A stretch of DNA of 64,000 nucleotides, taken from the NCBI GenBank assembly GCA_934141445.1, contig CAKPCF010000008.1:99-64098 (forward strand), given 5' to 3'. Under the pieces are notes generated by a model that made no database searches, was not told the DNA's origin, and saw nothing but the letters and a program-made list of their open reading frames with translations. Source of the DNA: an uncultured Clostridia bacterium. GTDB taxonomy: Bacteria > Bacillota > Clostridia > TANB77 > CAG-508. Within the stretch, counting starts at the first letter, position 1. Each line of letters starts with the position of its first letter. Made by a program: the position numbers and the translations under genes. Positions 7,096 through 59,324 of the stretch are shown one piece after another.

Positions 7096-8043
7096 ATGGA
7101 AAATATTAAGATTTTTTCATGTAGTGAATCGGCAGACAAATTTACAAAGGAAGTATGCAATTACTTAAAGCTCGAACCAGGCGAAATGACAAGAATGAAG
7201 TTTAAAAATGATAACAACTTTGTTCAAATTAAAGAAACCGTAAGAGAAAGTGACGTATTTTTAATACAAACTACAACACCACCTGTAAACGAAAGAATAA
7301 TGGAACTTTTAATTACAATTGATGCAGTTAAAAGAGCTTCTGCTAAAAGAATTACTGTAGTATTACCATATTACATATATTCTAGATCAGATAAAAAAGA
7401 CCAACCTCGTATACCAGTTACAGCAAAATTATTTGCACAACTAATTGAGGCAGCTGGTGCAAATAGAGTTTTAACTTGCGATTTACACAATCCAGCAATA
7501 TCAGCTTACTTCAATATAAATTGTGATGTTCTAACAGGAAAATCTTTACTAGAAAAATACTTTGATGCAAAAGATATTGAAAATAAAGTTGTTGTTGCCA
7601 CAGATGCTGGAAGTTCAAAAAAAGCATATAAATATGCAGAACATTTCAAATGTCCAATTGCTCTAATAGATAAGAGAAGAGATGGAAACAATGATAAGGC
7701 AATAGCTACTAGTGTTATTGGTGAAATTGAAGGAAAAAATGCTTTAATATTTGATGATGAAGTAGATACAGCAGGTTCAATAATGGAAACTGTTGATGTA
7801 ATAAAGAAATATGGAGCAAAGGATATATATGTGGGTTGTACACATGGAGTATTATCTGGTCTAGCAATTGAAAGAATTAGTAATTCATCAATAAAAGAAT
7901 TGGTTATGACGAATACAATTCCTCTTACAAAGGAAAAACAAATAGATAAAATTGTTGTAGTATCAATTTCAGAATTATTTGGTGAGGCTATAAAAAAGAT
8001 AAATGAAGCCACTTCAATTGGAGAATTATTTGAAGCAAATTAA
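7096..8043 (+). CDS. prs: Ribose-phosphate pyrophosphokinase
   Basis: RBS GGAGG. 315 aa. Motifs VVLPYYIYSRSDKKD, DLHN and PRPP loop DDEVDTAGS. Confidence 0.95.
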   Translation: MENIKIFSCSESADKFTKEVCNYLKLEPGEMTRMKFKNDNNFVQIKETVRESDVFLIQTTTPPVNERIMELLITIDAVKRASAKRITVVLPYYIYSRSDKKDQPRIPVTAKLFAQLIEAAGANRVLTCDLHNPAISAYFNINCDVLTGKSLLEKYFDAKDIENKVVVATDAGSSKKAYKYAEHFKCPIALIDKRRDGNNDKAIATSVIGEIEGKNALIFDDEVDTAGSIMETVDVIKKYGAKDIYVGCTHGVLSGLAIERISNSSIKELVMTNTIPLTKEKQIDKIVVVSISELFGEAIKKINEATSIGELFEAN

Positions 8044-10519: not shown

Positions 10520-11929
10520 ATGAGAGAAAATATTAAAGAGTTAGAAGACTTAATTCAAAAAGGATATGAATTAGAACTTATGTCTTTTGAACTGGATATT
10601 CCATTAGAAGAATTACAAAGTATAAGAGAAAATATAAATCGAAGAAAACAATTAGCAATTCTTGCAGAAAAAGATGCAATTGATACAAGTATAATAAATA
10701 TGCATACACCATCTGCTACAAAGCCAAAAACTACAGCAACGAACAAAAAACAAAATAAACCATCTAGTAGAACACAAGAAACTGGAACTGAAAGACTAAT
10801 TGGTTTCCAAAAAGTTAGAGCAAAATATTATGAGCTATATGGTGCATCAACAATGCCAGAAAGAACAGAGTTTGTAGAAAATGAAGAACTTAATAAGATT
10901 ATAGATGTATTGGAAGCAAAAGTGCAAGTATTGGAAGGTAGTACAAGAAAAGAAAGAAGACAAGGAGTAAAAATAATTCATGATGTAGTAGATAAAATTT
11001 CAGACCAAGAATTTTCAATTTCACAATTAAAAAGATTAGTTGATATTTTATATAGACCATGCTTAATGAATAATAAGTTGTTTAAAAGAGATACGATTGA
11101 CTATGCCATGTATTCACAAAGAAGAACAATACTCCCAAAATTCATAAATAAAATTATAGCTGAAGTTCCTTACGTAAATACTAAAGAAGAATTAAAAAAT
11201 CTAGAAGGAATGGTAACTCAAGCAATGAAAGATGAAAATCGAGTTTTGGTTGGTAGCTTAGAATTGAAATTAGCAAGTAAAAACAAAGAAATTGATAATA
11301 AAAACTTTGCAAAAATCAATAGCTTAACGCCAGAATTACAAGAAGTGGTTAAAAAATTAGTTGATGGTAATTTAGATTTTCAAGAGGGACAAAAAGCGGT
11401 TGTTGATGAGGCAAATAAAAGATTCGAATTAACAAAAGGAAATAGATTTTCTTTAACAGCAGAGCAACAAGAAAAACAAGTATATTTGAATATTGGAGAT
11501 TATATAGCAAATAATGGAACTAGTTTAAGTATAAAATCTCCAAAAGATTTTATGAAGAAATTTATGGAATTTACAGGTTGCGATTTAGCAAGAGCAATAT
11601 TCGTAACAAGTGAAAATCTTATTAGTGCTACAAGATATGATGAAGCAATGAGCTTATGCAATGATTTCTTAGCTAAAACTGGTCAAGATAGTCCATTAAG
11701 ACCATTATTAAGAAGTAAAATTGGAAAAATAAAGAATGTAATGCTTGGTAAAAGAATTTTAGATGTTATACATGCAAATGATAGTCAAGAAGATAGAAAA
11801 ATGTATAGAGAATTAACAGAATTGATAAGAAGTGAAAAAATAGATACATCTTATGTTCCACTTGGCAAAAACTGTGATGGAAGTAAAAATATACTTTTAA
11901 GAGAAGTTATTACAGATAGAATTAGATAA
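10520..11929 (+). CDS. Hypothetical protein (469 aa, helical/charged)
   Basis: Long ORF with host-like AT-rich composition. No recognisable motif. Confidence 0.7.
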   Translation: MRENIKELEDLIQKGYELELMSFELDIPLEELQSIRENINRRKQLAILAEKDAIDTSIINMHTPSATKPKTTATNKKQNKPSSRTQETGTERLIGFQKVRAKYYELYGASTMPERTEFVENEELNKIIDVLEAKVQVLEGSTRKERRQGVKIIHDVVDKISDQEFSISQLKRLVDILYRPCLMNNKLFKRDTIDYAMYSQRRTILPKFINKIIAEVPYVNTKEELKNLEGMVTQAMKDENRVLVGSLELKLASKNKEIDNKNFAKINSLTPELQEVVKKLVDGNLDFQEGQKAVVDEANKRFELTKGNRFSLTAEQQEKQVYLNIGDYIANNGTSLSIKSPKDFMKKFMEFTGCDLARAIFVTSENLISATRYDEAMSLCNDFLAKTGQDSPLRPLLRSKIGKIKNVMLGKRILDVIHANDSQEDRKMYRELTELIRSEKIDTSYVPLGKNCDGSKNILLREVITDRIR

Positions 11930-38796: not shown

Positions 38797-39687
38797 ATGA
38801 AAAAGAAATGCACAGTGTTTATGGAAGGCTACATTGACTACTTGGAAGACAAGAAACGTGAGGCTATCGAAAAAGCTGAAGCGGAAAAACAAAAGGAAGA
38901 AGCTGAAGCATTGAAAGCACACGAAATCGAGTTGGCATATGATGAGCACAATCCGAATGTGTATTCTGAAGTATGTATCCAGCAGGAGATGAACAAGGCA
39001 TGGCGAACTCACATGATCGATGATGGTTATGCATTGATGTTTGATGCAGAACGGTCTACTGAAGAAGCCAAGAAGGCATATTTTGCCACTGCAATGCGTT
39101 GCAAGGAGTATCCTGAGTGGGCTAATGAGCTCACTGTGAACTCCGAAGTTATGAGCTTTGAAGACTATATGAAGCTCGCATATCTGGATGAGCATGCAGG
39201 CGAGTACGATTTCTATAATACTAGTTTTATCATTATGGGATTTAATTACAATGTGGAACAGGACGAAGTAAATGGTTACTTCGGTATGTCTGCAGTATGT
39301 GATGATGACAAATCCAGTGATGAAATTATGGATGAAGTGAGATCACTGGATTGGGAGTTCAACCGTGTTGATGCAGTGAAGCATCGCAAAGATAAGGCTG
39401 GCAAGCGTTATAACGCTCTGCTTCGTGAGAAGCGGCATGTCAAGGCAATCGGTGCGATTGCAAATCATAGGCATTTCAAAGATGAATGTGAGGATTATCA
39501 GTACTTGTTGTCTCCGGACAAGAAGTTCAACTATGTGCGGGGGCCTGTAGTACATCCTCGCCAGGCATCTTGGCATGACGAAAAGTTGCAGAAGAATGCA
39601 AGTAAGATCCGTGTGGTGCGCCATAAGGCACATAAGCATGTTAACAAGTACAAGAACATGCAGAAGCGGGCCAACAAGAAGCGTTAA
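38797..39687 (+). CDS. Hypothetical protein in a G+C-rich single-gene island (basic C-terminal tail)
   Basis: ATG at 38797 follows AAAGGG. 296 aa. Hand-counted 100-nt samples give 42-45% G+C, against about 22% in the adjacent LOG gene. Frequent CTG/GCG/CGG codons. The tail is ...HKAHKHVNKYKNMQKRANKKR. Confidence 0.65.
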   Translation: MKKKCTVFMEGYIDYLEDKKREAIEKAEAEKQKEEAEALKAHEIELAYDEHNPNVYSEVCIQQEMNKAWRTHMIDDGYALMFDAERSTEEAKKAYFATAMRCKEYPEWANELTVNSEVMSFEDYMKLAYLDEHAGEYDFYNTSFIIMGFNYNVEQDEVNGYFGMSAVCDDDKSSDEIMDEVRSLDWEFNRVDAVKHRKDKAGKRYNALLREKRHVKAIGAIANHRHFKDECEDYQYLLSPDKKFNYVRGPVVHPRQASWHDEKLQKNASKIRVVRHKAHKHVNKYKNMQKRANKKR

Positions 39688-39751
39688 ACTTCAAGAGTTT
39701 TAAGAAAGCAGGGATATAAAAAAGAAAAAAATTTTTTCACGGCAGGAAAGG

Positions 39752-39777
39752 GAGCCTCCAGACTGGGGGCTCTTTTT
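39752..39777 (+). terminator. GC-rich rho-independent terminator of the island gene
   Basis: GAGCCTCC (39752-39759) pairs with GGGGGCTC (39765-39772), then a T5 run. Confidence 0.75.
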
Positions 39778-39805
39778 CCATGGGAAAAATCATATCTAAA
39801 ATACA

Positions 39806-39850
39806 TTTACAATTGTGCCACAAAATAATAAAAATGGGCACAATTGTAAA
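39806..39850. terminator. Perfect 14-bp inverted repeat downstream of the radical-SAM gene
   Basis: TTTACAATTGTGCC (39806-39819) pairs with GGCACAATTGTAAA (39837-39850). It ends 3 nt from the minus-strand stop codon. Confidence 0.6.
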
Positions 39851-39852
39851 TA

Positions 39853-40819
39853 TTAAAATTTGCATCCTTGCCATAAATCTTTCTCACGTAGTATTTTATC
39901 AATTCCATTTAAAATCCATTTTTTATGAGAGTTCCATTCAGGAGCAACTAGCAATTCTTTGGGAGCATCACCATTTATTCTATGAATTATTATGTTAGGG
40001 TTTAGGTTAGTAAGAATCATTTCTAAACAGTTTAAGTAGTATTCAAGAGATATAGGAATATATTGCTTGTTTAAATACATTTCTTCCAATTTAGTGTTTT
40101 TAACAATGTATGTAGAATGAATTTTTATACCTTGAATATCAAAGCTATTTATGAATTTTACAGTGTTCATAACATCTTTAATTGTTTCATTTGGTAATCC
40201 TACCATGATGTGAGAAACTATATCTATGTTATATTTTCTTAATAGATGTACAGCTTTTTCAAAATCTGTAGTGTTATATCCACGATTTATCAAATTTCCT
40301 GTAATGTTATTAGAGGTTTGTAAGCCTAATTCTACGCATACATAATATTTTTGGGAATATGAATGTAAAAGTTTTACAATTTCTTCATTGATACAATCTG
40401 GGCGTGTTGCAACTTCAATTCCAACAATTCTTTTATCTATAAGAGCAGAATCATATTTTTGTTTTAAATTTTCAATTGTATCATAGGTATTAGTAAAATT
40501 TTGAAAATATACAATAAATTTATTTGCACGAGTACTTTTGTAGCTGTTAAAATAATTTTCAACTTGTTTTCTAATTGAGTTAGTAACTTCTGTAATATAT
40601 GATGTATTAGATAAGCTATTTATTACATCAGAGTTTCCGGCAATTCTACGGATGTGTTCGCCAGAACCTTTTTCACTACAAAAAATACAGCCACTTGTTC
40701 CGACATGATCCATCTCTGTTTGGACATGTAAAATGACCATCAATACATATTTTTAAAGTTCTCTCTCCAAATTTTTCTTTTAAAAATTTATTTAAATGAT
40801 TATATCTATCTTTTTCCAT
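39853..40819 (-). pseudogene. TIGR01212-type radical SAM protein (YhcC-like), frameshifted near the CxxxCxxC region
   Basis: The N-terminal 47 codons run from ATG 40819 (MEKDRYNHLNKFLKEKFGERTLKICIDGHFTCPNRDGS...) and stop at 40676. The remainder (....VGTSGCIFCSEKGSGEH...) is in another frame (ORF 39853..40743). Joining them needs a 1-nt correction around 40702-40712. Confidence 0.75.
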
Positions 40820-45245: not shown

Positions 45246-46064
45246 ATGTTTGAAAATTTTGGAAATTTTTTCAAAAAAATGGTTAAGCCAGAAAATGTAG
45301 AAGAAGTAGAATCTAAAGAAGCAGCAAAAGAAAGATTACAATTAGTTTTAATGCAAGATAGAGCTAATGTATCAGCTGATTTTTTAGAACTTATGAAACA
45401 AGAAATTATAGATGTTATTAAGAAATATATAGAAGTTGATGAAAAAGCAATTGATGTCAGATTAACAACGCAAGTCAATTCAGATGGTACAAATGGAGCT
45501 CCTCTATTATACGCAAATATTCCAATAGTAAATATAAAGAATGAGGCAAAAGGTGAAAAAAATAGAGAACTATTAAAGAACGAAAATAAAGAAGTAATTC
45601 CTACAGAACATGAAAAAATAGAAGAAAAAATTGAAAAAAATATAGAAGATACAAGAGCTAATTTAATAGATGAGAAAATATTAAAAGAATTAAATGGTGA
45701 AATTATTTCTGATGAAAATAACTCAAAAATTGTTGAAGAAAATATAGAAGTTTCTTTGCCAAATGAAACAGAGGAAGATAAAGAAATAAAAGAAGTGATT
45801 CCTGAAGATAATACAAAATCTGATTTGAAAGATAAAGAAGATGTGGAAACACCTAAGGAAGTAGAGAAAATTGTAATATCAACAGAATATGATATGAATG
45901 ATGAACTTCTTAAAAATATAGATGAATTAGACTATGATGATGACGATGATGATGATGTAACATTTGATGATTTATTAAAAGCTGCTGAAGAAGCAGATTT
46001 AGAAGAAAATATAAAAGAAGAAAAAGCTAAAACAGAGAAGAAAAAAACTAAAAAGAAAAAATAA
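45246..46064 (+). CDS. minE: MinE topological specificity factor with ~170-aa acidic/Lys-rich C-terminal extension
   Basis: The first ~95 aa look like MinE (FFKK...SKEAAKERLQLVLMQDRANVSADFLELMKQEIIDVIKKYIEV). The rest is Glu/Lys/Asp low complexity and includes DYDDDDDDDV. Confidence 0.8.
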   Translation: MFENFGNFFKKMVKPENVEEVESKEAAKERLQLVLMQDRANVSADFLELMKQEIIDVIKKYIEVDEKAIDVRLTTQVNSDGTNGAPLLYANIPIVNIKNEAKGEKNRELLKNENKEVIPTEHEKIEEKIEKNIEDTRANLIDEKILKELNGEIISDENNSKIVEENIEVSLPNETEEDKEIKEVIPEDNTKSDLKDKEDVETPKEVEKIVISTEYDMNDELLKNIDELDYDDDDDDDVTFDDLLKAAEEADLEENIKEEKAKTEKKKTKKKK

Positions 46065-48917: not shown

Positions 48918-48966
48918 ATAAGCATAGCAATAATTGCGTTCTATATGTAAAATAGGAGTGAAGAAA

Positions 48967-49317
48967 ATGGTAATAAAAAGAGGAGATATGTTTTATGCAG
49001 ATTTGAGCCCTGTAATAGGTTCAGAACAAGGTGGAATAAGACCAGTATTGATTATACAAAATGATATGGGAAATAAATATAGTCCAACAGTAATTGCAGC
49101 AGCGATTACATCACAAACTGGAAAAAATAAATTGCCAACTCATATAGAAATTGCATCAGATGCTAATGGTTTGAAATCTGATTCTGTAGTTCTTGCTGAA
49201 CAAATAAGAACTATTGATAAAAGTAGACTGAAAGAAAAAATAGGACATATTGATGATACAAATATTATGAGTAGAGTAAATAATGCAATAGGTATAAGTT
49301 TCGGACTGGAAGAGTGA
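48967..49317 (+). CDS. mazF: MazF/PemK (EndoA-like) endoribonuclease toxin
   Basis: ATG at 48967 follows [56 protein letters not shown]... matches the EndoA pattern closely. Confidence 0.9.
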
Positions 49318-49558: not shown

Positions 49559-52495
49559 ATGGAAGAAGAAATTATTATTTCAGATAGTGCGGAAAAAAGG
49601 AGATTCGATAAGGGGAATACAGGAGAGATAATTGAAATAATAAATCCTGATGGAAATAGATATTTGTTTAAACCAGCACAAGATAAGAGTGGTAATTTAA
49701 AGGAATATAGGGCATATATTCAAGTTGCTGCCTCAAAACTACAACAAATAATTTCACCGGATACAGCTGTAAAAGTTTCTTTAGCAACTGTTGATGGTAG
49801 ATTTGGTGCTGTTCAAGAATATAAAGAGGGTAGAAACCTTTACTTGTATAATGATGAAAAAAAAGAAATATACGAGCAATTATTAGGAGAATATGTAGTA
49901 GATTATTTGCTTTGCAATTATGACTCTCATAGTAGAAATTTTATAGTTACAAACGATAATAGAGTTTTTGGAGTTGATAAAGAACAAGCTTTTAGATATA
50001 TAGATGAACCAGATAGTAAAGATTTATATATGTCAACAAATTTTAATACTCTATATAAAGAAGAAGCTCCAATATATAATTATGTTGTTAGTAATGCAAT
50101 TTTTGGAATATATGGAATTGATTTTTTAGAAGAAATGCAAAAATATATTGAACGTCTACAAAGTATATCTAAAGCTGATTACATGGCTATATTTCATGAT
50201 TATGCTTTTTCAAAATGCAAAGGAGATGAAGCTAAAACACAAGAATTACTTAATAAAATTGTAGAAAGAAAAGAATTTTTTCAAGATAAATTTAAACAGG
50301 CATTTAGAAAGAAAGAAGAATTAGCAGAAAAAGGTGAGAAATATTTTCCAGATAGAGATCCTGATTTTTATGGAAAAAATATTCCAGAACCAGTCGAAGT
50401 TGATTATAATTATTTGTGGAGTGGTATTGATACACCTACAATTTATAAACAAGCATTTAGAAGTTTAGAATCATATAAAAATGATATTAGAGTAATACCA
50501 TTAAGTGGTGAAATTCCAGCAATATATTTTAGATGTGAAAACAATGATGATTATATAATTAGATTTGGTTCAGCAGAAAATGTTCAAGCAGACACAGAAC
50601 AAATTATTTTAAATTATGTGTTGGCAATGAGAGAAAATGGAAAATTTAATGTGACTTGTAATGAAGATTATGAAAATGTAGAAATTCAGACTAGAAGATA
50701 TGCATATCCGAATTCTTTGATTAAAAAATTACAAGAAGCTTTTCCAGAAACGAGTGATGATGCTGTAAGAAAATTAGCAATTCAGGATATAGAATATAAC
50801 AGAAGGAAAGGTGTAACTGGAAAAAGTTTACAAGAATCTGTTGCATATAGTTGTGATATGCTCGAAAAAGAATATAATCCTAAAAAAGTTGAACAACTTG
50901 AAGACCTTGCAAATGAATTTGATAATTTTTATAATAGAAAAACATATGCAAGACTAATAAATATTAGTGACATTAAAACTATTAATGGCAGACCACTTTT
51001 GACTTCAAGAAATGCAGCCAATAGACTTATTAAATATTCATTAAGAGATATTGATGGAACAAAAGTAGCTGATTTAAATGAGTTTTCTGAAAGTATACAA
51101 GAATATTTATTGAAAAACTTATATGATGGTAAAATAAAGATACCTGAAGAATATAAAAAAGCTTTAGATTTTTATAAAGGTACTCAATATGAGCCTATAA
51201 ATTCATTGACAAGGGGTGTATATGGGAAAGTTGAAAATGCAGCAATTTCAGTTCTGGATATCACAGAAGGTTTACTAAGGTTAGATGCTTTAGCTAATAA
51301 TATGCCATCAAGAAAATATGACATGATTATTAGAAGAATGGGAACTGGCACAAGTCAGACTATTGAAGAAGGAAGAAATAATCGATATGAAAGTTTAGTG
51401 TCTTTTGGTACAGATTTAGGTTCTGCTACAACTATGAATGCTGGAGTACGATATTGTAGAATTTTGAAAAAAGATGATAAGGCTTTTCCGGTTGAACAGC
51501 TTGCTCCTGAACAACAATTGAATGAAAAATCTGAAAATGAAGTTTTAACTATGCCATTTGAATATGTTACGGGGAAAGTAACAGAAGTGCAAGAAAAGTC
51601 GGGAAGAGTAAAAGAAGTTGAAATGACAAATATTAAAGATATTTCAATGGTTGATATGCTGTCAAAAAGAATCGAAGAGTTTAGTAAATATGAGGAAGAT
51701 AGATTAGCTAGAAGACTAAATGCTGAAAGAAAATTACAAGATAAATTAGGAAATATAGAAGAATGTAAAGAACTAAATATATTTTCAAAAAAAGATGAAC
51801 TTAGAGAAGAATACGAAAGCATATTATCTTCAAGTGTATCAGAAGAAAAAAAGAATGAATTATTGCGAAAAGCTTTTTTAAAAAAGGCTATGTTTGTAAG
51901 TATGGGATATGGTTTAAAAGTTTTATTAAGACTAATTGATGATCCAAATTTTTTAGCAGGACAAGAACAAGAGGAACTTTTAATTGATATGTTGAATGAA
52001 CCTAAAATAACTGAACAGGTTGCTAATAAATATAATATGGACTCTGAAACAATAAAGAAGATAAGAGATTACTTTAAATTAAACTCTGATACATCAGTGA
52101 AATCAACAGAACTTGAATCAGAAGTGGGAAAAACATTGGCTGGAGTTAATGAAGTTGCTAAAACTGATGCAATAACAGTATTAGATTATTATACAATTGA
52201 TAAAGAAAGAGTTAGCGCAAATATAACTGATGCTCAAAGAGCAAAAGATTTAATTGAAAAATATAAACAGCAACCATATATGCCTGAAGTTACAGTAGAG
52301 AAGTACCAAGATGAGGTATCTCCATCAATTACTACAGGTGATTTACAACAATTGACAGAAACAAGAAGATTTTCTAAAATTCAAGCAACAATTATAGGTG
52401 CAAAAAATTTTCTTTCTAATATATTTAGCAAAAAACATCATGTTAATGGAGAAATCGAACTACAAGATAAAAAGAGTGAAGGAAACGATAGATAA
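49559..52495 (+). CDS. Multidomain protein: N-terminal PI3K/PI4K-like atypical kinase motifs + central R-S-E ADP-ribosyltransferase domain
   Basis: No signal peptide or TM. Kinase-like: LFKPA (Lys38), AVQEY hinge, DSHSRN (aa 122-127, DxHxxN catalytic loop), GVDKEQAF (Asp140). ART: YKGTQYEPINSLTRG (aa 539-553), MIIRRMG (Arg), SLVSFGT, and ENEVL with Glu659/Glu661 (51533-51541). Confidence 0.75.
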   Translation: MEEEIIISDSAEKRRFDKGNTGEIIEIINPDGNRYLFKPAQDKSGNLKEYRAYIQVAASKLQQIISPDTAVKVSLATVDGRFGAVQEYKEGRNLYLYNDEKKEIYEQLLGEYVVDYLLCNYDSHSRNFIVTNDNRVFGVDKEQAFRYIDEPDSKDLYMSTNFNTLYKEEAPIYNYVVSNAIFGIYGIDFLEEMQKYIERLQSISKADYMAIFHDYAFSKCKGDEAKTQELLNKIVERKEFFQDKFKQAFRKKEELAEKGEKYFPDRDPDFYGKNIPEPVEVDYNYLWSGIDTPTIYKQAFRSLESYKNDIRVIPLSGEIPAIYFRCENNDDYIIRFGSAENVQADTEQIILNYVLAMRENGKFNVTCNEDYENVEIQTRRYAYPNSLIKKLQEAFPETSDDAVRKLAIQDIEYNRRKGVTGKSLQESVAYSCDMLEKEYNPKKVEQLEDLANEFDNFYNRKTYARLINISDIKTINGRPLLTSRNAANRLIKYSLRDIDGTKVADLNEFSESIQEYLLKNLYDGKIKIPEEYKKALDFYKGTQYEPINSLTRGVYGKVENAAISVLDITEGLLRLDALANNMPSRKYDMIIRRMGTGTSQTIEEGRNNRYESLVSFGTDLGSATTMNAGVRYCRILKKDDKAFPVEQLAPEQQLNEKSENEVLTMPFEYVTGKVTEVQEKSGRVKEVEMTNIKDISMVDMLSKRIEEFSKYEEDRLARRLNAERKLQDKLGNIEECKELNIFSKKDELREEYESILSSSVSEEKKNELLRKAFLKKAMFVSMGYGLKVLLRLIDDPNFLAGQEQEELLIDMLNEPKITEQVANKYNMDSETIKKIRDYFKLNSDTSVKSTELESEVGKTLAGVNEVAKTDAITVLDYYTIDKERVSANITDAQRAKDLIEKYKQQPYMPEVTVEKYQDEVSPSITTGDLQQLTETRRFSKIQATIIGAKNFLSNIFSKKHHVNGEIELQDKKSEGNDR

Positions 52496-52504
52496 GGATA
52501 AAAT

Positions 52505-52954
52505 ATGAATAAAGTTGAATGTAATTATGCAAAAATGTTTTCTGAATTATACGAAATTTTCAATTATTTACCAAATGAGCTACTGAGTAAAATACCAGAA
52601 GAACTTAAAGAAAATATTATAAATAACAGAGATAAATTATATAAATATCAATATAATTCAGAGTTAAAAATATATGAAAATCAAATGATGGATGAAACCA
52701 AGGATTTTATAGCAGGCTTATATTTAAATTATATGTGTGATCAATCAGAAAAAGATGTGCTACTTAAAGAATGTACAGAAAATGATATGAAATACGAAAA
52801 AATGTTAAGAGAAAAGTATAATCCAGATGATATTTTTAAAAATGAAATTATGGTAGAAAAAACTTCAAAAAATAATGAATTGATAGAGTATAAAGAAACT
52901 TTTTTAAAGAAAATAATAAATAAAATTAAAGGAATATGGCATATAAATTTATAG
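52505..52954 (+). CDS. Small hypothetical protein coupled to the kinase-ART gene
   Basis: Starts 10 nt after the upstream stop, with RBS AAGGA. 149 aa, acidic and helical. No recognised motif. Confidence 0.7.
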   Translation: MNKVECNYAKMFSELYEIFNYLPNELLSKIPEELKENIINNRDKLYKYQYNSELKIYENQMMDETKDFIAGLYLNYMCDQSEKDVLLKECTENDMKYEKMLREKYNPDDIFKNEIMVEKTSKNNELIEYKETFLKKIINKIKGIWHINL

Positions 52955-54743: not shown

Positions 54744-55475
54744 TTAAATTTTTCTATAAGTTTCTGCAAGTATTCTTGAAAATGTTTTATCTAAAAATTC
54801 TAAACTATATATGTTACTTGTTTTTATATGAATTAGTTCTAATTGAGCTTCATCAAAAATTTCATCTAAGAAAGCATCTCTTTCTTGTCTTTTTTTCTTA
54901 TAATGCGTTTTGTCATCTAATTCTATACAAAAAAGTATTTTACCTAAATTATTACATATTGTAAAATCAATACTTTTTCTATTTATTTTATTTTGAAGAG
55001 AATTAAATCTTGAACTCCAATGGTTTGACTCATTAACTTCTAATATTTCGTAAAGAATTACTTGGGCAAATACAGTACATTTGTATTTAATAGCAATTTC
55101 TTTTAAAACTTTGTAAAATTTTGTTTCATTTTCTGTCATTAGATATTCTTTTCTTTTATATCTAGGTACTACTCTATATTGTAAAACATTGTCAGCATTA
55201 TATATATTTCTGACAACTCTTGTTTCTGTTTGGATTAGTTTATTGTATTTATCAATATTTTCTTGTTCTAATTTTTTGTCATTTTCTTCTTGTTTTTTCT
55301 TTAAATTTTCTTCTTTAGATTTGAAGTACAATTTTTGTTTTAATAGAGCATCTTGTCTTTTTTGATATTCTTTTATTTTCTTTATTATCCATTTGCCTAC
55401 ATAATAATAAAATAATATTTCAATAAGGCAAGCTATTAGTGCTCCAACATATTTAATATAATTCATATTTTTCAC
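54744..55475 (-). CDS. Membrane-anchored DUF2726-like (nuclease-fold) protein, prophage accessory gene
   Basis: GTG start overlaps the repressor stop by 4 nt. TM, coiled coil, then a DUF2726-type pattern (TENETKFYKVL...VFAQV...INRKSIDFTICN...LFCIELDDKTH...RDAFLDE). Confidence 0.7.
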   Translation of the reverse strand: MKNMNYIKYVGALIACLIEILFYYYVGKWIIKKIKEYQKRQDALLKQKLYFKSKEENLKKKQEENDKKLEQENIDKYNKLIQTETRVVRNIYNADNVLQYRVVPRYKRKEYLMTENETKFYKVLKEIAIKYKCTVFAQVILYEILEVNESNHWSSRFNSLQNKINRKSIDFTICNNLGKILFCIELDDKTHYKKKRQERDAFLDEIFDEAQLELIHIKTSNIYSLEFLDKTFSRILAETYRKI

Positions 55476-55684
55476 TTTCTTTTGTATGGATTTGGATTAT
55501 CTGTCAATTCAACAATGTAGTCAATTGATGTTTTATAAATTATTGCTAATTTTTTTAAACTTTCTATTGGTATTTGTCTTTTTTCACTTTCATATTGCTG
55601 ATATGTATTTTGCTTACAATTTAGCAATTCAGCAATTTGATTTTGCGTATAGTCGTTATCTTCTCTTAAATCTTTTAATCTCAT
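55472..55684 (-). CDS. XRE-family repressor (prophage)
   Basis: 70 aa. HTH_3 segment LKDLREDNDYTQNQIAELLNCKQNTYQQYESEKRQIPIESLKKLA. Divergent from the structural operon. Confidence 0.85.
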   Translation of the reverse strand: MRLKDLREDNDYTQNQIAELLNCKQNTYQQYESEKRQIPIESLKKLAIIYKTSIDYIVELTDNPNPYKRK

Positions 55685-58293: not shown

Positions 58294-58300
58294 ATTGCTT

Positions 58301-58329
58301 GCAACAACGGACTTTATGTCCGTTGCTGC
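58301..58329 (+). other. GC-rich hairpin upstream of the Zot-like gene
   Basis: GCAACAACGGAC pairs with GTCCGTTGCTGC (11/12 bp, 5-nt loop) in otherwise AT-rich DNA. Confidence 0.6.
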
Positions 58330-58349
58330 AATTATTTGAAAGGAACAAA

Positions 58350-59324
58350 ATGTTAAATATATTTTTTACTTATACAAAAATCTTGTTTTGGGTTTTCTTG
58401 GGATTGCTTGTTATTTTAGATGTAGCAAAAAAAGGATTTATACATAATTTTATTTTTAAATTTATTGAAGCTTTTCCATTTTTTATAAAAGATGTGTTTA
58501 CTACTAATTGGAAAGAGTTTAGAGGATATGGCTTTCATATTTATTGTGGCTTAGGTGGTTCTGGAAAAACTATTTCAATAGTAAATTATCTTTTAGCAAT
58601 GAAACAGAAATATCCAAAACTTAAAGTCTATACAAACTTTTACTTTCCAGCTGGAGATGGAATTATAAAAGATTGGAAAGATTTAATTGAAACAACAAAT
58701 TATGAAACTGTTGAAATTACAAAAGAAGAATATGAGAAATTAAAGAAATATAAGCCTAATAAAGAAGGAAAAGAAAAAGAATATTGGGCAGAAAATATAG
58801 AATTTGTTGATGAAGAAACAGGCGAAATAATAGATACAGAAAAGTATTATAGAATTGTAAATCATGGTGTCATTTTTGGTTTTGATGAAATACATATGAC
58901 ATTAAATTCAGATAAATGGAAAGATAGACCAGATGATTTACTTTATTACATTTCACAACAAAGAAAGATGCATAAACAAATAGTTGCTAGCTCACAAGTT
59001 TTTACTAGAATTGATAAAATTTTAAGAGAACAAACAAACTATGTTGTAGAGTGTAGTTCGTTTTTAATGGGTAGATTGGTTGTAAATCGTTTTTACCATA
59101 CTGAGGAATATATTGCAAATGATGAAAAGAAAGATAAAGGAACTAAAAAGAGAAAAGTAAAAGCTTATAGAATATTTATTGCAAGAGATTTTATAAGAAA
59201 TTCTTATGATACAGAAGAAATAATGAAAGATTTAAAAGTTGCAAAATCGAAAGATAAGCAACTTGTAGATTTGATAAAAGAATATAGTAAAAAGGAGATT
59301 TCATCAAATGAGTATTTTTCTTAG
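58350..59324 (+). CDS. Zot/pI-like P-loop assembly ATPase
   Basis: ATG at 58350 follows AAAGGAAC. N-terminal TM (ILFWVFLGLLVILDV). Walker A GLGGSGKT. Walker B VIFGFDEIH. Confidence 0.75.
   Translation: MLNIFFTYTKILFWVFLGLLVILDVAKKGFIHNFIFKFIEAFPFFIKDVFTTNWKEFRGYGFHIYCGLGGSGKTISIVNYLLAMKQKYPKLKVYTNFYFPAGDGIIKDWKDLIETTNYETVEITKEEYEKLKKYKPNKEGKEKEYWAENIEFVDEETGEIIDTEKYYRIVNHGVIFGFDEIHMTLNSDKWKDRPDDLLYYISQQRKMHKQIVASSQVFTRIDKILREQTNYVVECSSFLMGRLVVNRFYHTEEYIANDEKKDKGTKKRKVKAYRIFIARDFIRNSYDTEEIMKDLKVAKSKDKQLVDLIKEYSKKEISSNEYFS

Follow-up and report, generated by a model that had tools for sequence, protein, structure and literature searches.

A candidate two-headed toxin joining a kinase-like domain to an R-S-E ADP-ribosyltransferase, with a small partner gene, in an uncultured Clostridia bacterium

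Bxa, a MuF-type ADP-ribosyltransferase (ART) encoded by a prophage of Bacteroides stercoris, modifies arginines and is accompanied by a small binding inhibitor, Bsi, and an ARH1-type hydrolase, BAH (PMC11699363). The same work demonstrates extracellular action of a signal-less cytoplasmic ART that has immunity proteins, and offers a further precedent in the Apk2 arrangement (PMC11699363). Small open reading frames (ORFs) are also found after MuF toxins (PMC5576092), and in polyvalent proteins no protein-modifying domain is more frequent than the ART (Iyer et al. 2017, PMC5512222). ART toxins with a small cognate gene in phage or polymorphic-toxin modules are not categorically new, and fusions of a kinase-like domain with an ART already exist in phage genomes. 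Here we describe a gene pair in a 64,000-nucleotide (nt) stretch of DNA, hereafter the window, from an uncultured Clostridia bacterium (GenBank assembly GCA_934141445.1, contig CAKPCF010000008.1, positions 99 to 64,098). The first gene encodes a 978-amino-acid (aa) protein composed of a kinase-like domain, a domain that we call X, an R-S-E ART and a tail; the second encodes a 149-aa partner. On balance we favour reading the pair as a two-headed cytoplasmic toxin restrained by a coupled small protein, i.e. as a toxin-immunity module akin to toxin-antitoxin (TA) systems.

Both ORFs lie where they had been predicted, on the + strand and each with an ATG start: the large gene at 49559..52495 and the gene of the partner, a probable ART inhibitor (immunity protein or antitoxin) by analogy with Bsi, at 52505..52954, with a gap of 9 nt between them. 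A GAGGT is located 7 nt 5' of the large-gene ATG, and an AAGGA overlaps the large-gene TAA stop directly 5' of the partner ATG; this overlap fits translational coupling of the pair. The 3' part of the large gene contains a promoter-like site (TTGACA-17-TAAAAT, 52352..52380, +), 125 nt upstream of the start codon of the partner, that matches 11 of 12 consensus positions and is kept in 10 strains. By its sequence it is possibly a separate partner promoter, a weak argument because the site lies within coding sequence; the scan for promoters and terminators was uninformative given the AT-rich DNA (27% G+C for the 64-kb window). Both proteins are acidic (isoelectric point 5.1 each). A hydropathy scan revealed neither transmembrane segments nor a hydrophobic N-terminus in either of them (maximum Kyte-Doolittle 19-residue window of the large protein, 1.18), and Pfam and hydropathy searches detected in the large protein neither MuF or LXG nor a signal peptide or any further trafficking domain. 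The proposed cytoplasmic location without secretion tag is borne out by these searches.

The ART assignment of the original prediction was confirmed by model and sequence. It concerns aa ~525-700 (51131..51658, +), which form a C3/VIP2/Alt-type R-S-E mono-ADP-ribosyltransferase domain. An AlphaFold2 model of aa 500-725, based on a 35-sequence alignment, reached a predicted local distance difference test score (pLDDT) of 93 and a predicted template modelling (TM) score of 0.88. The Foldseek comparison that had been suggested as a check was run with this model and with a model of the full-length protein. With the former, the 50 best PDB matches listed were all ARTs (C3, VIP2, C2-I, CDTa, iota, Certhrax, Plx2A and Vis; E ~2e-8, probability 1.00, TM score 0.6-0.65), and in BFVD the model matches phage Alt/VIP2-type ARTs, many of them fused to minor-capsid (MuF) or portal proteins. 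The expected motifs are in place: Y539-K540...N548...R552-G553, R593 in MIIRRMG, S612/S615 in SLVSFGT and E659-N-E661. The 35-sequence alignment shows no variation at S615 and E661 and at least 90% conservation at K540, N548, R593, Y632, E659 and P666. Positions 2 and 3 of the STS motif are F-G in the close ART family and follow the S-T-S pattern in distant members, which carry canonical VYRG, SFVSTSL and ExEILLxP motifs. Exhaustive searching by HMMER with aa 500-725 as query returned 56 relatives; PF03496 (ADPrib_exo_Tox) was matched by 15 of 55 ART relatives, PF01129 by three and NarE by one. The window protein itself stays below the threshold of the Pfam/NCBIfam ART models, and its link to a curated family is transitive. 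Against the PDB, the ART profile found SpvB (E 0.006) and VIP2 (0.09) as best matches, and Tre1 weakly. The ExE motif of the ARTT loop denotes arginine specificity, and arginine is the predicted target residue of this domain. A kinase plus VIP2-ART combination also occurs outside bacteria, in a 'Kinase VIP2 domain containing protein' of Pandoravirus dulcis (BFVD S4VPE6) that matches the ART model with E 2.7e-5.

Amino acids ~10-265 (49586..50353, +) probably adopt a kinase-like fold, judging from conserved residues, sub-threshold matches and a weak model; we describe them as an atypical protein-kinase-like domain. Its motifs are a Gly-rich G19xxG22, K38 in LFKPA, Q86 in VQEY, D122-x4-N127 in DSHSRN and D140-K-E-Q in GVDKEQAF. 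Alignments of 21 and 29 sequences, from Firmicutes, phages and mycobacteriophages, were prepared; in the latter K38, D115, N120, D122, G138, D140, K141 and Q143 do not vary and N127 hardly does (at least 90% conserved). All kinase motifs named in the original prediction are thus present, but H124 of DSHSRN is not conserved across the family, which lacks a DRHxxN signature. The conserved residues spell Lys ... D-x4-N ... D, the core pattern of protein-kinase-like enzymes. PF00454 (PI3_PI4_kinase) aligns below threshold at the catalytic loop of 6 of 13 members (best E 2e-4), with a score of 12.3 bits for the window domain against a cut-off of 27.1, and one member matches HipA_C. PI4K2A is aligned at hinge and catalytic loop (vvDYlLcNFDshxxNFii versus VLDYIIRNTDRGNDNWLI; E 1-2.4) and stays at E ~1 when three progressively deeper kinase profiles are searched against the PDB. 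The full-length AlphaFold2 model, built from four sequences, has a mean pLDDT of 49 (35-87 in blocks of the N-domain). The 50 best Foldseek matches listed for this weak model were all kinases, none of them at E <= 1e-3: CtkA comes first (E 4e-3, TM score on target 0.47-0.50), followed by MavQ, VPS34/PI3K, APH, RIO2 and CotH. The proposed PI3K/PI4K-like identity is therefore supported by conserved residues and kinase-only fold matches but not by any single significant match; we retain 'PI3K/PI4K-like' as the best available description suggested by sequence, not as a membership. The domain is presumed to be active as a kinase.

Between the two heads lies domain X (50456..51058, +; aa ~300-500), with the motifs EKIxLN ... 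DQIxIxGxxLxxTRxAAxxLI. It is homologous to the N-terminal domain of proteins in which X and ART are followed by an HD phosphohydrolase (X-ART-HD), the layout of many other relatives of the ART region. A degenerate binary-toxin-like ART was considered for domain X and ruled out, with an hhalign probability of 0.6% against the ART and no relative found in the PDB. The protein ends in a helical acidic tail (51731..52495, +; aa 725-978; low-pLDDT helical model), which is species-specific: jackhmmer with this region recovers only P0001, the single 97%-identical protein in the protein database. Three further database proteins (P0002-P0004) are about 32-33% identical to the large protein over aa 1 to ~716-778, and the whole kinase-like plus X plus ART architecture is common to P0001-P0004, P0034 and P0037. 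X-ART is the conserved core of the large protein. Full-length relatives amount to only about seven protein clusters in large databases. The kinase and ART fusion is rare, because none of 185,579 species-representative genomes contains a full-length relative.

The kinase-like domain itself is far more widespread. Seventeen database proteins match only aa ~3-273 of the large protein, with the domain in one of three places: flanked by MuF (PF04233) on its N-terminal side and by a Rho_N motif on its C-terminal side in ~1130-aa proteins, within the C-terminal half of 604-724-aa proteins, or near the N-terminus of two 663-aa proteins. Among GTDB species genomes we obtained 58 matches, each covering the kinase-like domain only. 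The carriers fall into four size classes: ~1100 aa (MuF-type), ~570-690 aa, 260-295 aa (stand-alone) and 1786-3061 aa (giants); one MuF-kinase gene is located directly 3' of Portal_Mu within a complete head and tail module. Most giants carry the domain at the extreme C-terminus, and Pfam gave no match on the carriers scanned, two giants (L042, L054) among them. As side observations, the giant carriers come from Bacilli, Erysipelotrichaceae and 'Tenericutes' metagenome-assembled genomes; at L042, L043, L045, L047, L048, L054, L059 and L062 the domain stands at or near the C-terminus, a place resembling that of the toxin in polymorphic toxins, and L046, L049 and L051 are ORFs cut by contig ends. 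IMG/VR contributed 118 relatives on viral contigs. All of the 80 viral loci examined were classed as MuF-type carriers (ORFs of 655-1233 aa, mostly ~1100-1150; domain central in 78), and domain X, the ART family of the window and the partner occur in none of the 80. We conclude from sequence that the kinase-like domain is mainly a module of phage MuF head proteins and is common in those of Firmicute phages. Published accounts (PMC5512222, PMC9503650, PMC5576092) treat MuF-linked ARTs, zeta-like kinases and another polyvalent kinase group; the kinase-like domain is not described in them.

In an annotated phage collection the matches are mycobacteriophage proteins named 'ADP-ribosyltransferase' or 'minor capsid and ADP-ribosyltransferase fusion protein'. 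Onyinye gp16 (1340 aa) contains the kinase-like domain at aa 198-456 (E 2e-32 to the profile) and McProf gp54 (1185 aa, encoded directly after the portal gene) at aa 481-736 (E 1e-37). C-terminal R-S-E ART motifs are recognised by eye in both, as VVRG / VSTSL / GEQEVLLPP in the former and LSRG / LSTSI / HEREVILP in the latter, and Onyinye gp16 is the seventh BFVD match of the window ART model (E 1.2e-7). The claim that the architecture has no precedent does not hold, as the two phage proteins already combine a kinase-like domain with an R-S-E ART. In Mycobacterium phage Phrappuccino the hypothetical protein gp195 (L097:2917-6690, ~2000 aa) carries the kinase-like domain in its N-terminal part and adjoins a virion structural protein.

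The partner belongs to an unannotated family with 1248 matches, and a 46-sequence partner profile found no relative in the PDB. Co-occurrence of the two genes, a check put forward in the original prediction, was confirmed: in all six kinase-ART lineages examined a partner-family gene adjoins the large gene. It stands directly 3' in L001 (49% identity, E 7e-29), L002 (39%, full length), L003 (34%) and L064 (32%). Both X-ART-HD genes examined (in L098 and L099) are also followed by a partner-family gene (E 9e-52 and 1e-39 to the family profile; gaps of 24 and 0 nt). Of the predicted toxin-immunity arrangement the conserved adjacency therefore stands, but specificity for one toxin does not, as this family of ~1250 members follows X-ART-HD, ART-like, HD and unannotated genes alike. 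Two such first genes, of 604 and 645 aa, show weak, correctly placed matches to the ART profile (E 3e-5 and 3e-3), with FRVDR / FSTSM / GEREILV recognisable by eye, and a first-gene family of ~380 aa overlaps the partner-family gene by 8 nt. The partner family is absent from the 50,697 records of the phage collections and has one match in IMG/VR; the small ORFs that follow MuF-kinase genes in phages have no relation to it. Directly after the partner, L001 and L002 have an ADP-ribosylglycohydrolase (ARH) gene (PF03747, E 2e-67) in convergent orientation. Conserved islands of repeated large-enzyme and partner-family pairs are found at L001:10989-15216, L069:1-10209 and L071 (745-aa HD plus 156 aa, 604-/645-aa ART-like plus 166 aa, 389 aa plus 157 aa), and in L001 and L002 the island adjoins the kinase-ART pair and the ARH gene. 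In L064 the P0034 pair has as neighbours an 85-aa gene that weakly matches Imm32 (7483-7740) and a convergent SIR2-family gene (10940-11656).

A look-up of the identical MazF protein gave nine strain contexts, from gut metagenomes and one NCBI assembly. In all nine the pair is directly 3' of mazF, between it and membrane-protein genes; it is a fixed chromosomal locus of the species, unrelated to the adjacent prophage. The accessory stretch that had been assumed is thus not a strain-variable region, and the prophage is the variable part. Across the nine strains the eight catalytic residues are intact and the large gene has no stop codon. Ratios of non-synonymous to synonymous diversity (pN/pS, Nei-Gojobori) are 0.30 for the whole large gene and 0.28 for the partner, 3-5 times those of neighbouring housekeeping genes (RodA 0.07, Dus 0.09). 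Within the large gene they are 0.145 for the kinase-like domain, 0.48 for linker and domain X (aa 270-500), 0.23 for the ART domain and 0.36 for the tail; the pair is under purifying selection. Indeed, the large gene is no chance ORF, being intact in nine strains with a pN/pS of 0.30, its catalytic residues kept and its architecture shared by homologues of ~31-33% identity. Its synonymous diversity (pS 0.042) is ~3x lower than that of RodA, Dus and the partner (0.11-0.15), which suggests a recent sweep or recombination at the large gene. One strain (L091:6598-8823, GCA_977057065.1) has a 741-aa allele that has lost aa 22-261, the kinase-like domain, in frame and keeps X, ART and tail, with the partner 10 nt downstream. 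Since X-ART and partner persist in this deletion allele, restraint of the ART does not depend on the kinase.

The adjacent prophage is inovirus-like and filamentous (54744-~62921). Its left end carries a DUF2726 gene (54744-55475, -) and an XRE regulator gene (55472-55684, -), and a Zot-type ATPase of 341 aa (58299-59324) matches Inovirus sp. Zot/assembly ATPases (E 1e-13). It is present in some strains only, between a 265-aa membrane-protein gene and an aminoacyl-tRNA synthetase gene, which follow each other in prophage-free strains. The original prediction had named a known phage structural protein as the finding that would overturn it; this identity was ruled out for the large gene, which lacks MuF and lies outside any tailed prophage, the adjacent phage being an inovirus. 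As for the other neighbours, mazF (MazF/PemK toxin, Pfam E 1e-34; 48934-49317, called start 48967) encodes a protein that is 100% identical across all strains sampled; there is no MazE-like gene upstream of it, the preceding gene encoding a YdcC/GerS-like lipoprotein. MinE (45246-46064, 272 aa) has a Glu/Lys-rich C-terminal extension of ~180 aa and is 81% identical and indel-rich between strains, MinD being 100% identical. At 39001-40000 the local G+C rises to 0.40, possibly an RNA gene cluster.

In the interpretation that we favour, the large protein would be a soluble cytoplasmic enzyme with two catalytic heads. Its N-terminal head would be a phage-type kinase-like domain, a kind otherwise found mainly in MuF head proteins, the presumed injected effectors, and its X-ART core is predicted to mono-ADP-ribosylate arginines of bacterial cytoplasmic proteins with NAD+ as donor. 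The partner would be a stoichiometric inhibitor that silences the ART in the producer, as Bsi does for Bxa, and the ARH of the two related loci could supply a second, enzymatic layer like BAH and Tri1. Kinase activity, arginine specificity, inhibition by the partner, toxicity and a trigger such as phage infection or stress are all inferred here. Several observations weigh against this picture. The kinase fold is based on a low-confidence model and sub-threshold sequence matches, and neither protein has a significant match in Pfam, NCBIfam, PADLOC, PHROGs or PDB sequences, i.e. no curated resource recognises the pair. Its fixed position among housekeeping genes is unusual for mobile TA or defence modules, and the 64-kb window contains no ARH gene. 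In L065 the partner-family gene lies directly upstream of the large gene, in reversed order, and several first genes of the partner family have no recognisable ART (the ~380-aa family and those of 389 aa, 745 aa with HD, and 169 aa); this variety and the L065 order are compatible both with a broadly used adaptor or chaperone and with a promiscuous immunity family. An immunity role of the partner can only be inferred, because its family also pairs with other large genes. In agreement with the original prediction, the pair matches no known defence system: large protein, partner and neighbours have no match in PADLOC-DB v2 at E <= 1. The defence or abortive-infection role proposed at the same time is possible and was not supported by our findings.

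The nearest relatives of both domains are delivered effectors, namely MuF head proteins and phage Alt/VIP2 ARTs and also the eukaryote-directed toxins C3, VIP2, C2-I, CDTa, CtkA and MavQ. If the large protein were such an effector, it would be exported, or released by lysis or an unrecognised route, and target other bacteria or epithelial cells of the host, with the partner protecting the producer only. This would suit an organism found in human gut metagenomes, Bxa is a signal-less cytoplasmic ART that acts outside the cell (PMC11699363), and the related loci are arrays of large-enzyme and small-protein pairs like polymorphic toxin loci. We nevertheless consider delivery unlikely, even if it is the strongest of the alternatives: the large protein lacks MuF, LXG, signal peptide and any other trafficking domain that we searched for, its gene lies outside a tailed prophage and next to a filamentous, strain-variable phage, no binary-toxin B component is encoded nearby, and domain X is dissimilar to the adaptor domain of VIP2-type toxins.

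The breadth of the partner family bears on a second, distinctly unlikely alternative, in which the small protein is a shared adaptor, chaperone or activating/sensor subunit of an effector-plus-regulator system, e.g. an anti-phage system with swappable effectors. The first genes paired with this single family of ~1250 members are of at least six unrelated kinds, the gene order is reversed in L065, and the small protein is conserved while its large partners vary, the reverse of what classical toxin-specific immunity would show. However, promiscuous immunity families of the SUKH type reportedly exist, and an ART, alone or fused, is encoded by several of the first genes, so that these may share a target domain. 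The partner is also small, acidic and faster-evolving than housekeeping genes (pN/pS 0.28), as immunity proteins are, and the absence of a PADLOC match argues against an anti-phage system of this kind.

It is quite improbable, in our estimate, that the kinase-like domain and the ART act as one coupled system, performing two successive reactions on a shared substrate or modifying each other, with X-ART-HD proteins working in a SidE-like manner and the partner family being a new general regulator. The succession of kinase-like domain and ART in two phyla, with different ART subfamilies, hints at functional coupling. Possibly, phosphorylation would render the arginine-ADP-ribose mark hydrolase-resistant or prime the target; equally possible is that the kinase-fold domain regulates the ART, by analogy with SidJ and SidE, and the X-ART-HD proteins would by the same analogy be a SidE-like ART-plus-phosphohydrolase version (phosphoribosylation). 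Very improbable is an endogenous regulator that combines reversible arginine ADP-ribosylation (as DraT/DraG) with phosphorylation of a housekeeping process under modulation by the partner, for which the position, fixed in all strains, among cell-division and sporulation-related genes, the purifying selection and the DraG/ARH-family ARH adjacent in two relatives would speak, but which is at odds with the extremely patchy distribution of the full-length protein, with relatives that are phage and conflict-system proteins, with the strain devoid of the kinase domain and with a pN/pS 3-5 times that of neighbouring housekeeping genes.

What is new, then, is a kinase-like family, an X-ART core combined with either a kinase-like or an HD domain, a large partner family and a chromosomally fixed, MuF-less version of the architecture. 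With 118 viral contigs, 58 species genomes and the mycobacteriophages as carriers of the kinase-like domain, phages may inject kinases far more often than annotated, and mycobacteriophage and metagenomic records are open to re-annotation. Should the pair prove to be a toxin-immunity or abortive-infection module, a two-headed toxin working by phosphorylation and arginine ADP-ribosylation would join the known repertoire, and the kinase-less strain allele constitutes a natural experiment. If the two activities were chemically coupled, this would amount to a new post-translational mechanism in bacteria.

Among described systems, the Bxa-Bsi-BAH group shares with the window pair an R-S-E ART of the Alt/VIP2 kind in the cytoplasm of a producing gut bacterium, followed by a small non-enzymatic ORF; the relatives L001 and L002, which add an ARH-family hydrolase, reproduce its three-gene layout. 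Unlike Bxa, the window protein has no MuF, is encoded outside a prophage head module and possesses a kinase-like domain and domain X; the window also lacks the hydrolase, and its partner, for which inhibition is proposed by analogy, has no detected similarity to annotated proteins. Onyinye gp16 and McProf gp54 each unite in a single chain the same kinase-like family and, C-terminal to it, an R-S-E ART. In contrast to the window protein, they are phage head-module proteins, gp54 with MuF, they stand at twice the sequence distance and have neither domain X nor a partner-family gene; their ART belongs to another subfamily (weak matches to the window ART profile), and their kinase-like part is unannotated in the records. 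With C3 and the VIP2/C2-I/iota/CDTa group the window ART shares the fold (TM score 0.6-0.65), the N-terminal YxxxxYxxINxxLR helix and the Arg, Ser and ExE motifs, but it is 12-16% identical to them, has S-F-G in place of S-T-S and a predicted target in the bacterial cytoplasm; compared with the enzymatic components of binary toxins, it lacks a signal peptide, an ART-like adaptor domain and a B-component-like gene nearby. CtkA of H. pylori, type II PI4K, VPS34/PI3K, MavQ and HipA display the same Lys ... D-x4-N ... D pattern and include the best fold matches, whereas the window domain has no significant sequence match to such kinases, a DxHxxN His that is not conserved in its family and a low-confidence model. 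Like the polyvalent proteins (PMC5512222), the large protein unites several effector enzymes in one polypeptide, and its kinase-domain relatives share their MuF-linked delivery; however, the ARTs there are of the H-Y-D type (Tox-ART-HYD2), the kinases form a different, C-lobe-less Ser/Thr/Tyr group of Verrucomicrobia and Bacteroidetes, and the window gene is chromosomal and devoid of packaging domains. Compared with the MuF polymorphic toxins (Jamet 2017), finally, the window protein is without MuF (PF04233) and outside a prophage head module, and has its small ORF 9 nt downstream.

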